The notes under the pieces: generated by a model
What the model was told of the DNA's origin: nothing
Databases searched by the model: none
The model's input: only the letters and a program-made list of their open reading frames with translations
In this document: positions 17,000 to 26,077 of the stretch, piece by piece
Numbering within the stretch: the first letter of the stretch is position 1
Layout: each line of letters starts with the position of its first letter
NCBI GenBank assembly: GCA_964636255.1
Contig: CAZWNW010000006.1
Location: 46,364-110,363, forward strand
Length of the DNA stretch: 64,000 nucleotides
From: an uncultured Bacteriovoracaceae bacterium
GTDB lineage: Bacteria; Bdellovibrionota; UBA2428
Direction: 5' to 3'
Position numbers and translations under genes: made by a program

Positions 17000-18619
17000 A
17001 TGTTTTCGTATATCGCACGATCTTTAGTCGTAATCAGCTTTCTCAACTTTGCTCTTTTGGCAATTGCGGCCGATCCGTCGCGGACCATGCGTTGGCCCTT
17101 TGACCAGCGGCAGATTCTTCTGGCTAAACCCGAGGGACAGAGTTTTCCCGATGATCTCACGGTTGCCCAAATTATGGATCTATTCGTCAAACGTGGTCGG
17201 GTTCGATGGGTGACGGCTCAAGGGGGTCGAAATCAACTGGTCCCTGTCGAAATTCCGAGTGACTTTCAATGGAGATCCGCTGACGCCGTCCGCAATCTTG
17301 GAACAAAATATCGCGTCGACGGAGCTTTACTTCTGTCGCAACAAAAATCGGAGGTTCAGCTGCACTGGTACTCTGCCGCCGATGGACAACCGCTTTTTTT
17401 CGAAACACTTTTTTTGCCCGAGCCCGGCAAAACCGTGGAAATGGCTGAGAAAAGAAAACAGCGCCTTAACGAATGGCTCTCGGACATATGGTCACGCATT
17501 CCTGGGCAAGGTTATCTTGTTCGGCGCGACAGCACTAGCGTGGAAATCGAGGGTGCAGACAAGGAAGGTTTTCGCATTGGGGACCAAGTTGAATTCGTTC
17601 GGCTCGAAGAAATCAAACGCCATCCTGTTTTAAAGACACTAGCAGAAATTAAATCCTCCATTGCGGGAGTTGGGGAGATCCTCACGCTCAACAGCCCCTT
17701 TTCGAAAGTTAAAATCATTTATGAATCCAACCTAGATCCCCTGCGCGAGGGAGACCGCTATCGCCTTATACGTCGAGAAACAAGTGCAGGAAGTATGGCG
17801 CAGCTGCCGGGTGGGCAAAGCGCCGGATCTCCGATTTCTCGTCCGCCTGAAACCACTGCGGATTCCGCAAAGTCTACTTCATCAACATTGGGAGGAATGC
17901 TTGGAATTCAGAGTCAGTTTTTAGATCTAAGCCTCCGTGGTGGTTATGGAAAACTGAGTCACAGTGAAGTGACGGCTGCTTCTGACACCTTAGAGATGTC
18001 TTCATCTGGTTATCTCTTGAAGGCCCATGCGGAACTTCTGATTTCTCGCGATTGGTTCGGATCTTTTGATTACGCATTTGGATTGCACAAGTTTTCCACT
18101 GTGCCGACCGAATACGGAGAGTCTTCGATCAGTTCTGGAATGAGGAATTTGATGATCTCAGCCGGCTATCGTTGGACAATCGACGAGGCCGCAGAAAGTT
18201 CCGGTGCGCTTCCCACCCAACTTTTGTTTTATGCTGGTTACCACAGGCTTTTGGGGAAAATGGCGCCGACAAGTTCTGATGTCGCTCCCTCACAAAAAAC
18301 CTACTCGGGACTATTTGCAGCAGTAGGACTGCGAATTCCCATGATGGATATGCTCGGACTCTCCCTGGACGTCACGCGCGCATTTGGAACATCGCTGGGG
18401 GAAGCGGTGGAAAGTTCCGGAGCAACATCGCAAAACGTGCTGTGGAGTTATGATTTCAGTTTGGCTTACGCCATGTCACGCACGCAAAACATAACACTCG
18501 GTTTTCACGGCATGAGCGCCTCGACAACTTTCAGCGGAGACGGAACGCGAACGACTTCAGCAGCACTAGCAGACCTACGCGCAGTCTACGGCTCACTCGG
18601 CTACCAAATGAAATTCTGA
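17000..18619 (+). CDS. Outer membrane protein: periplasmic N-terminal domains (FlgT-C-like segment) plus C-terminal beta-barrel
   Basis: Signal peptide; alternating beta strands after an S/T/G linker; C-terminal YQMKF BAM signal. Confidence 0.7.
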   Translation: MFSYIARSLVVISFLNFALLAIAADPSRTMRWPFDQRQILLAKPEGQSFPDDLTVAQIMDLFVKRGRVRWVTAQGGRNQLVPVEIPSDFQWRSADAVRNLGTKYRVDGALLLSQQKSEVQLHWYSAADGQPLFFETLFLPEPGKTVEMAEKRKQRLNEWLSDIWSRIPGQGYLVRRDSTSVEIEGADKEGFRIGDQVEFVRLEEIKRHPVLKTLAEIKSSIAGVGEILTLNSPFSKVKIIYESNLDPLREGDRYRLIRRETSAGSMAQLPGGQSAGSPISRPPETTADSAKSTSSTLGGMLGIQSQFLDLSLRGGYGKLSHSEVTAASDTLEMSSSGYLLKAHAELLISRDWFGSFDYAFGLHKFSTVPTEYGESSISSGMRNLMISAGYRWTIDEAAESSGALPTQLLFYAGYHRLLGKMAPTSSDVAPSQKTYSGLFAAVGLRIPMMDMLGLSLDVTRAFGTSLGEAVESSGATSQNVLWSYDFSLAYAMSRTQNITLGFHGMSASTTFSGDGTRTTSAALADLRAVYGSLGYQMKF

Positions 18620-18693
18620 GCGCTTTTCCGGAGGCAGGGGTTGGAACTCACGAGCCTGTGGGAAGCCTTTCGTAAATAAATCCCCTCATTGGA

Positions 18694-18794
18694 CACAATA
18701 CAGGGAAGCTCTTTATTAATTCCGTCGATGCCTCACCCCGGCGGCGTAGGCGTTTTACTCTTCTACATAAAACTTTGCCCGCCTTGGGGCAGTG
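18694..18794. repeat. Core copy X1 (101 nt, CAC...GTG), inverted relative to X2
   Basis: Blocks 18694-18703, 18730-18748, 18775-18794 are exact reverse complements of 19008-19017, 18962-18980, 18916-18935. Confidence 0.92.
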
Positions 18795-18915
18795 TCCAAT
18801 GAGGGGGAAAGGCTTCTCAAAGACATGGAGATTGCCATCTTGGTAATTTTGGAAACTTAGGAAATTTAGAAAACCTGAGTTCATTCACATAAGCTAGATA
18901 TTTATATCTCTGGAT

Positions 18916-19017
18916 CACTGCCCCAAGGCGGGCAATGGTGATTAAAGAAAAAAAATATACTTACGCCGCCGGGGTGAGGCTTTCACCGGGGTTCCTGAAG
19001 TGCATAGCTGTATTGTG
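18916..19017. repeat. Core copy X2 (102 nt, CAC...GTG)
   Basis: See X1; flanked by its own inverted repeat 18884-18918 / 19015-19049 (34/35 match). Confidence 0.92.
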
Positions 19018-19121
19018 ATCAAGAGATATAAATATCTAGCTTATGTGAAAGCACACAGCTGCCTCTATTCCCTTCCTAGACTGAAAGGGGACTCATCAGC
19101 TTTGTTTTTTACTAAAGTAAA

Positions 19122-19400
19122 TTACTTGAGGTTACGATCGAAGCGCGCCTTTTGGCGGTTAAACCAGTCGCGGAATTTGTCGTAATTTTCGTCAAGCTCG
19201 AGAAGATTATCAAGACTTAGATAGTCGGTGCGTGAAGTGACTTTTGCTTTGTCCTGATTGTAATAACTAAATTCATTTTGATTAAGTTCAACAGCTTCCA
19301 CCCAAGATTTGATCGCATCCTTTAACCACATGGGGACGTTCCGGAGGTCAGCCTCGCGGTTGTAGTTGATCAATTCCTGCTTGATGTCGTGTTGGTTCAT
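19122..19400 (-). CDS. Orphan 92-aa helical, AT-rich protein of unknown function
   Basis: Clean ORF downstream of suhB, no overlap with other genes, hand-counted lines 33-40% GC. Confidence 0.65.
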   Translation of the reverse strand: MNQHDIKQELINYNREADLRNVPMWLKDAIKSWVEAVELNQNEFSYYNQDKAKVTSRTDYLSLDNLLELDENYDKFRDWFNRQKARFDRNLK

Positions 19401-25342: not shown

Positions 25343-26008
25343 CTAAAAACGAATGCCGGCAAGAAGTGCGCTACTGACGAAACTTCCCGTCGATCCCAGG
25401 CGGTGGATGTAAAAAGTCGCTTGGATCAGAAAGGCATTTAAGTCCCAGAGGCTAGTGAAGCCTACACTGGGAAATAGGGTGATTTCGCTTTCTCCGGCGG
25501 CGGTGGATTCGATTCGTAAATCAAGAGTGGTCAATAACCCTGGCTTCCACATAGAAGTTTTTCCCAGTCGGCTGCGATAGAAGACACCTTGTTGCAAAAC
25601 GAAGACGTTTAATTTGTCTTCAGTTGTAAGGTTCATTCCGCGATAGCCCACTTCCGTTTCCAGAAATATCGGTTGGAAGGCCATATCCCAACCAAAACTC
25701 AGTCGTCCCTCGGCGCCAAAGCCAGTAATGCTGACGCCTTCGACAACAAGGCTCTGAAAATAACTATGGTTCACGCCGGCCTTGAGACCCATGCGAAAAA
25801 GCGAAGTGCGTTTTTTAAGTCGACCTTGTTTGACAAGTTCTTCGGGTGATTCCACTGGTAGTGAATTGTCCTCTCCCGAGGGAGGAGCTTCATCATAGGG
25901 ATATTCTTGGGCGTGAATATTTTGTGAGTGTAGAAAAAAAATTCCGCTAATGACGATAGAGAAAATCCGCAACATGCCTATCGATGATAATGGCAGGGAT
26001 TGAATCAA
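25343..26008 (-). CDS. Putative outer membrane beta-barrel protein
   Basis: Signal-like N-terminus, amphipathic strands, C-terminal LLAGIRF. Confidence 0.65.
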   Translation of the reverse strand: MIQSLPLSSIGMLRIFSIVISGIFFLHSQNIHAQEYPYDEAPPSGEDNSLPVESPEELVKQGRLKKRTSLFRMGLKAGVNHSYFQSLVVEGVSITGFGAEGRLSFGWDMAFQPIFLETEVGYRGMNLTTEDKLNVFVLQQGVFYRSRLGKTSMWKPGLLTTLDLRIESTAAGESEITLFPSVGFTSLWDLNAFLIQATFYIHRLGSTGSFVSSALLAGIRF

Positions 26009-26030: not shown

Positions 26031-26077
26031 AATAAAAATTGCGCGCCTCGGAAGCTCGGGGTGCTTCCCAGGCGCGC
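26031..26077 (-). terminator. Probable intrinsic terminator downstream of flagellin
   Basis: GCGCGCCT/AGGCGCGC (8 bp) + GGAAGC/GCTTCC (6 bp) stem followed on the minus strand by AATTTTTATT. Confidence 0.6.

Follow-up and report, generated by a model that had tools for sequence, protein, structure and literature searches.

The question raised by the locus described here is what two copies of a structured motif, placed on opposite strands in the gap between two convergent genes, represent in the genome of an uncultured Bacteriovoracaceae bacterium (Bdellovibrionota). The two copies, X1 and X2, lie in a stretch of 64,000 nucleotides of contig CAZWNW010000006.1 (assembly GCA_964636255.1), which is referred to as the window and which sets the coordinates of the locus. 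A sequence-only reading of this DNA had described three exact blocks in a fixed architecture and had proposed that the segments between them could be guides or spacers. Here, we present a computational analysis of the architecture, fold, genomic setting and possible relatives of this element. The feature itself is real and statistically secure. Judged from its sequence, the element looks undescribed and looks like a hairpin-tip repeat with a putative function rather than a guide RNA.

Conserved blocks and fixed architecture

Each core consists of three blocks separated by two linkers and is enclosed by a closing stem; core and stem together form a module (Table 1). The block positions are identical in X1 and X2 (49/49). 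Positions and spacing were re-derived, which confirmed the three exact blocks with their fixed architecture and supports the view of X1 and X2 as two opposite-strand copies of one structured motif. A degenerate three-block pattern matched exactly two sites, X1 and X2, and blocks 2 and 3 had no further occurrence in the 64-kb window with up to three mismatches allowed (0.00-0.01 matches in shuffled sequence).

Table 1. Features of the locus between the two convergent genes (18620-19121)
Feature	Position	Strand	Remarks
Left flank, from the stop codon of the OMP-like gene (18617-18619) to module 1	18620-18655		paired to the outer module 1 arm when the entire gap is folded
Module 1 closing stem, 5' arm	18656-18693	+	outer part 18656-18671, one-sided 10-nt bulge 18672-18681, inner part 18682-18693
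X1 core	18694-18794	+	101 nt; layout 10/26/19/26/20 nt
X1 block 1	18694-18703	+	CACAATACAG, same 10 nt in X2; its own CAC forms the top three closing-stem pairs
X1 linker 1	18704-18729	+	26 nt; contains a small GGAA/TTCC hairpin
X1 block 2	18730-18748	+	GCCTCACCCCGGCGGCGTA, same 19 nt in X2; 18736-18749 paired to block 3
X1 linker 2	18749-18774	+	26 nt, AT-rich; loop of the block 2:block 3 helix
X1 block 3	18775-18794	+	TTGCCCGCCTTGGGGCAGTG, same 20 nt in X2; 18775-18789 paired to block 2; terminal GTG closes the stem
Module 1 closing stem, 3' arm	18795-18822	+	
Inter-module spacer	18823-18874		52 nt; 9-nt tandem unit at 18851-18874
Module 2 closing stem, 3' arm (minus-strand reading)	18875-18915	-	
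X2 core	18916-19017	-	102 nt; layout 10/27/19/26/20 nt
X2 block 3	18916-18935	-	as in X1
X2 linker 2	18936-18961	-	26 nt
X2 block 2	18962-18980	-	as in X1
X2 linker 1	18981-19007	-	27 nt
X2 block 1	19008-19017	-	as in X1
Module 2 closing stem, 5' arm	19018-19058	-	44-nt arms including CAC/GTG, 91% paired
Right flank, up to the 92-aa gene stop codon (19122-19124, minus)	19059-19121	+	imperfect hairpin, then T-run 19105-19110

The linkers are kept in length (26/26 nt in X1, 27/26 nt in X2), with a difference of at most 1 nt. The earlier manual counts of 14/26 and 12/26 matching linker positions were reproduced, but shuffling places this likeness at or below chance, so that the "diverged linkers" of that account are better called unrelated but equal in length. 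For the left arms of X1 and X2 the shuffle test gave p = 0.15, and for the remaining linkers and stems p = 0.7-1.0. Since the blocks agree at 49/49 positions while linkers and stems are at chance, X1 and X2 are not a recent duplicate, and the same difference indicates constraint on the blocks and their spacing. A CAC/GTG junction is present at all four core boundaries. The spacer between the modules carries 2.7 copies of a 9-nt unit (GGAAACTTA GGAAATTTA GAAAAC; 18851-18874), iteron-like in appearance.

Fold of the modules

In X1, the inner part of the closing stem pairs 18682-18696 with 18792-18806 (15/15) and the outer part, past the one-sided bulge, pairs 18656-18671 with 18807-18822 (14/16); in X2, 18875-18918 pairs with 19015-19058 over 44 nt (91% paired). 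Stem size is therefore given as 31 bp with a bulge for module 1 and 44 bp for module 2, and the stem sequence is copy-specific. Compared with shuffles, single modules reach fold z-scores of -6.3 to -8.0 on either strand, and the hairpins are also stable under DNA parameters (z = -5.3). It had been noted before that the closing stems differ and yet both pair: within the 15-column top of the stem, 14 pairs are predicted, of which 9 differ at both positions between the copies and nevertheless pair. The small hairpins reported within the blocks are likewise present, on the CACTGCCCC strand.

An addition to the earlier note is a helix between blocks 2 and 3, which are mutually complementary over 13 pairs in both copies (18736-18749 with 18775-18789 in X1), according to RNAalifold and the single-sequence fold of module 2. 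This helix lengthens the closing stem into a rod and makes linker 2 a 26-nt AT-rich terminal loop, with block 1 and linker 1 as a one-sided bulge of ~40 nt. Except for the block 2:block 3 helix, the core folds of X1 and X2 differ. Being inverted copies, X1 and X2 can also pair with each other, as they do in the minimum-energy fold of the entire 502-nt gap (-208.9 kcal/mol, z = -10.4); with this alternative, the locus has three mutually exclusive sets of long helices.

The strand on which the element acts cannot be read from wobble pairs: G-U pairs are few in each orientation, five of the six mismatches in the stems would not be wobble pairs on either strand, and the G-U/G-T evidence favours neither strand. 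An intrinsic terminator requires, on the transcribed strand, a GC-rich hairpin with a U-tract immediately behind it. In the minus-strand reading, module 2 is followed by the U-rich GGTTTTCTAAATTT, whereas no U-tract follows module 1 on the plus strand, and the sole call of a terminator scan was the small block 3 hairpin of X1. No promoter-like site was found in or beside the modules.

Insertion site and neighbouring genes

The element occupies the gap between two intact convergent genes, one encoding an outer-membrane-protein-like (OMP-like) product (stop 18619) and one encoding a protein of 92 aa (stop 19122). This gap measures 502 nt here and 2-114 nt in five related gene layouts from nine contigs, in which the gene order is the same (RecG, LptC-like, OMP, 92-aa gene, SuhB, asparaginase, CBS, sigma-54 regulator). 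In detail, the distance from the 92-aa gene to the OMP gene is 2 nt in L052 and L053, 33 nt in L026, 62 nt in L022 and 114 nt in L054-L056. As the gap in the relatives is short despite the shared order, the structure of ~400-440 nt is a lineage-specific insertion. Its non-coding span of ~400 nt (18656-19058) comprises the two inverted hairpin modules, and the left flank may belong to the insertion or to an ancestral spacer. Divergence of the flanks prevents their alignment with the relatives, and a covariance model built from X1 and X2 found no match in 16 loci, 11 of them from relatives.

In L022, the stop codon of the OMP gene lies within a hairpin that is followed by a T-run, an arrangement comparable to the right-flank hairpin at 19059-19110. 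The latter was not called by a simple terminator scan; it probably served as the terminator of the OMP-like gene before being displaced ~440 nt downstream. To judge from this layout, the insertion apparently lies between the stop codon of the OMP-like gene and its terminator.

The OMP-like gene (17000-18619, plus strand) encodes 539 aa ending in ...GYQMKF, with an autotransporter beta-domain match that is sub-threshold for Pfam (E = 6.6e-4). Its position is kept in the relatives, where the products have 526-564 aa and a faint OMP_b-brl match, and the sequence features suggest that it is probably an uncharacterised outer-membrane beta-barrel encoded beside an LptC-like gene. The 92-aa gene (19122-19400, minus strand; protein MNQHDIKQELINYNREADL...) is the last of an operon with the sigma-54 regulator, CBS, asparaginase and SuhB genes. 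Its product has no Pfam and no NCBIfam match, but dozens of Bdellovibrionota metagenome proteins share 80-93% identity with it, although SuhB reaches only ~50-70% identity in the same set, and the gene following suhB is nearly always this one. A role of the 92-aa ORF as cargo or partner of the element was rejected on this ground: the protein is kept at 80-93% identity in relatives that lack the element and is therefore encoded by a conserved core gene. It represents an unusually conserved small protein of no assigned family, neither an orphan nor an island gene.

In some relatives, the OMP gene is missing from this position: in L057 (826-1104) and the contig of P0003, the 92-aa gene is followed by an NAGPA-domain gene in one and by small same-strand ORFs in the other. 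The variable gene at this place makes the junction a recurrent rearrangement point in the lineage. No gene for a transposase, a RAYT/HUH protein, a recombinase, a reverse transcriptase or a cas-type protein was found within ~12 kb of the element, and the 64-kb window contains no tRNA gene.

Searches for homologues

Run with filters off over the 64-kb window, the covariance model returned only X1 and X2. A 37-nt palindrome of 78% GC at 26041-26077, which the model matched on both strands as a bare hairpin, follows a 221-aa ORF (25343-26008) and is probably a bidirectional terminator. In Rfam 15, where twister, hammerhead, 6S, Y RNA, retron-type and omega RNAs were considered as far as they are modelled, no family came near its gathering threshold, either for the region or for each module alone, with E <= 10 accepted on the short inputs; the best scores were 13-20 bits against thresholds of 36-70, and the families concerned are all implausible.

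No homologues were found in species-representative genomes, JGI metagenomes, IMG/VR, phage records and plasmid records. Exact block 2 gave 21 matches in species-representative genomes, all without block 3 and in unrelated, mostly GC-rich genomes, and exact block 3 did not occur in JGI metagenomes or IMG/VR. In IMG/VR, a gapped pattern of blocks 2 and 3 gave 24 matches, all by chance in GC-rich DNA, and a purine/pyrimidine-degenerate pattern of the three blocks gave none; the only metagenome match of a three-anchor pattern was a chance match within a coding gene. By blastn, the entire region had no match at E <= 1 in 72,556 plasmid and 50,697 phage records. No contig with an exact-protein match was obtained for the neighbouring proteins, and no sequencing run containing the region was found.

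Several known classes were considered and set aside. The coding reading was rejected, as no frame is conserved over both cores and the open 24-codon frame of X1 lacks a start codon in X2; the translation of a spurious 78-aa ORF across module 1 had no relative among 5.8 billion proteins. The strings ACACUGCC and CCCAAG resemble twister, but a twister-like ribozyme was rejected since the Rfam models gave no match. In retrons, a1/a2 inverted repeats enclose msr-msd directly upstream of a reverse transcriptase gene; here enclosing inverted repeats are present, but a nearby reverse transcriptase gene is not. Sites of the dif/Xer type or for IHF in the stems were also rejected, as the agreement by eye (5-7/11) with the E. 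coli consensus is unconvincing.

Linkers and the guide question

In guide-bearing RNAs, such as the bridge/seek RNAs of IS110/IS1111, CRISPR, TIGR and C/D box RNAs, constant segments alternate with variable ones, as they do in X1 and X2. That the element could be an RNA with programmable guide or spacer segments, in linkers or stems, between constant handles is suggested by exactly this alternation of constant blocks with unrelated segments of nearly constant length. The further evidence makes it very unlikely. No target of any linker was found in the 64-kb window (no 16-mer match at <=1 mismatch), in phage or plasmid records, or in IMG/VR, where 20-24-mers of all four linkers are absent. The linkers are AT-rich and partly of low complexity (TTTTTTTTCTTT; T8 occurs in one of them), and linker 2 forms the loop of a hairpin.

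Compared with their own flanks, the linkers show no overall significance, one of four tests reaching p = 0.05 (outer left arm compared with GGGAAGC(T)CTTT of X1 linker 1). Two local likenesses were observed, individually non-significant (p ~0.05 for X1, ~0.4 for X2). The start of X1 linker 1, GGGAAGCTCTTT (18702-18714), is an 11/12 copy with one gap of GGGAAGCCTTTC in the outer left arm (18659-18670) and could therefore compete for the outer right arm; the end of X2 linker 1, GTGAAAGC, perfectly complements GCTTTCAC of the outer left arm.

X1 and X2 furthermore differ from all these guide systems in segment lengths and boxes and have neither effector gene nor targets. Bridge/seek RNAs reside inside the insertion sequence beside a DEDD/RuvC-like recombinase gene, and their guide loops match target and donor ends; no such recombinase gene lies within ~12 kb of X1/X2, nor does a cas, tas, IS110-type recombinase or TnpB/IscB gene. 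CRISPR and TIGR loci consist of tandem direct repeats and spacers with cas or tas genes, the spacers matching mobile elements, in contrast to two inverted units with three different blocks and no tandem array. The guide/spacer proposal of the sequence-only reading thus found no support, as no targets and no significant match to the flanks were found and one linker serves as loop, while its statement that the motif is not a bridge RNA, TIGR or C/D RNA was correct.

Alternative explanations

A serious rival to the repeat-element reading, although a rather unlikely one, is that X1 and X2 are paralogous genes for a new small RNA, with the stems as processing stalks from which RNase III would free an RNA of ~100 nt. 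The blocks would then form its functional core, which could bind a protein, act as a ribozyme or resemble an aptamer junction, and the linkers would form fixed-size peripheral loops. Small ribozymes and aptamers typically combine conserved strands at the junction with an outer stem and peripheral loops that vary. The RNase III stalks of rRNA and of 23S intervening sequences, long variable stems that are cut to release the conserved RNA between them, have a layout like that of the modules; X1 and X2 differ in being known from sequence alone and in enclosing a core that matches no known RNA. Conservation of each block position next to parts at chance, linker lengths kept within 1 nt and the nine compensated closing-stem pairs argue for this explanation, as does the symmetric layout, in which each convergent transcript meets a module in one orientation. 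Against it stand the negative Rfam result even at E <= 10, the lack of a promoter-like site, a U-rich tract after module 2 only, the different core folds outside the block 2:block 3 helix, stem mismatches that are mostly non-G-U and favour neither strand, and the absence of homologues from the searched collections and of the element from the relatives.

It is distinctly unlikely that X1 and X2 mark the two ends of a single miniature mobile element, or that they are left over from a small replicon that passes through a single-stranded DNA stage. In this case, a transposase, a primase or a Rep protein would bind the blocks, spaced about four helical turns apart, and the hairpins would be recognised on single-stranded DNA, as in the ends of IS200/IS605 elements, parvovirus-type terminal hairpins and RSF1010-type origins, where opposite-strand ssi sites occur with iterons. 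Left and right transposon ends often show such inverted copies with a common block architecture and different spacers, the insertion is missing from the relatives, three iteron-like 9-nt repeats lie between the modules and the hairpins are stable with DNA parameters (z = -5.3). However, there is no target-site duplication at 18693/19018, the outside flank of a core is complementary to the interior of the element, which a simple two-ended transposon does not explain, plasmid and phage records show no similarity, and no transposase or rep gene is nearby (~12 kb). The ssi/Frpo hairpins of plasmids and filamentous phages also belong to replicons with a single-stranded DNA stage, whereas X1 and X2 lie among chromosomal core genes and have no blastn match. 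A DNA switch is highly improbable: the nested repeats (A/A' around X1, X1/X2 around the middle, B/B' around X2) would permit recombinational inversion, and three interlocking inverted-repeat sets with CAC/GTG at all four core boundaries fit this idea, but the location between two gene 3' ends offers nothing obvious to switch and no recombinase gene occurs within ~12 kb. An assembly or library artefact is hardly credible. Palindromic flanks around a constant core are a signature of untrimmed hairpin adapters and fold-back chimeras, here around constant synthetic or hairpin sequence, and the element is found in no other data set; it lies, however, inside a 202-kb contig with intact syntenic genes on either side, its linkers differ between the copies, the arm mismatches and the bulge look like real evolutionary decay, and plasmid and vector records gave no match.

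A hairpin-tip repeat element as the preferred reading

A hairpin-tip repeat best fits the combination of features, namely invariant blocks at fixed spacing, linkers without mutual similarity, arms that pair although their sequences are unrelated, and inverted copies inserted between convergent gene 3' ends. Our preferred reading, which we hold tentatively and put somewhat short of an even chance, is that X1 and X2 are copies of a small, putatively dispersed structured element or palindromic repeat in which locus-specific arms carry a conserved hairpin tip. The best fit is that only the tip (~101 nt) is the inherited, constrained part. The GC-rich invariant blocks would be required by the fold or by an enzyme that recognises or propagates the element, the arms would be built or kept paired locally, e.g. 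by intra-strand template switching, and the linkers would act as length-constrained spacers, not as guides. Given its place between the OMP stop codon and the probable terminator, and downstream of the suhB/92-aa operon, the insertion is probably transcribed, the modules entering the 3' UTR in the CACAATACAG orientation. In a 3' UTR, such long hairpins could form barriers at the 3' end, serve as RNase III sites or insulate the two convergent genes from each other.

This picture shares much with the REP/BIME/REPIN elements, which are non-coding, hairpin-forming and extragenic, which lie at gene 3' ends and frequently form inverted pairs where two genes converge, which vary in presence among related genomes, which form mosaics of conserved units with linkers of set length and which become part of 3' UTRs and there stabilise or insulate the message. 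X1 and X2 have no sequence similarity to REP/BIME, and the differences are marked. The conserved part of a REP is the stem of a 20-40-nt (imperfect) palindrome, whereas here a tip of ~101 nt is conserved and the stems are copy-specific. REP/REPIN sequences occur in tens to hundreds of dispersed copies per genome and are mobilised by RAYT, a Y1 HUH transposase whose gene is usually flanked by REPs; the 64-kb window has two copies only, both at one locus, and no RAYT gene lies within ~12 kb. A candidate REP-like CACTGCCG hairpin family elsewhere in the same genome is a lead only. Resemblance also extends to Correia/NEMIS, ERIC, RUP, Rickettsia palindromic elements and MITEs, small, non-autonomous, intergenic elements with long hairpins, which may be co-transcribed and, in the case of Correia, cleaved by RNase III. 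MITEs, however, have conserved terminal inverted repeats and target-site duplications, while X1 and X2 share only CAC/GTG (perhaps TTG..CAC) at their ends, and no direct repeat was found around the cores or around the unit 18694-19017.

Neither arm could be traced to any ancestral flanking DNA. According to two papers (PMC8794818; PMC13100816), inverted-repeat arms can arise from local sequence by template switching during replication and can be homogenised and lengthened in this way, which offers a possible route to locus-specific arms around a common tip. Template switching is a mutational process and defines no element family, and it leaves the invariant blocks unexplained.

Perfect blocks beside random linkers fit a selected function at least as well as a repeat element. 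Selfish non-autonomous copies normally decay evenly. An unlikely but broader possibility is an undescribed, structure-defined class of hairpins in Bdellovibrionota and other uncultured bacteria, of which the tip alone is inherited. In one variant, the arms would be self-made from target DNA by fold-back or template-switch synthesis at each insertion, amounting to an inverted target-site duplication; in the other, the tip would be a new functional small RNA whose stalk is cut by RNase III and whose linker segments are exchangeable.

What the hairpin-tip element means for the biology of these bacteria depends on its copy number. If it is a single-locus oddity, it would be a curiosity, and its likely effect would be limited to the insulation of two convergent transcription units. 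If more copies exist, they would provide a clean case of selection on a hairpin tip with arms that are free or locally made, a selection on the tip alone that textbook REP and MITE families do not show. Two questions would then follow, namely which enzyme or fold reads the three blocks, and how arms of 30-44 bp are generated and kept paired.
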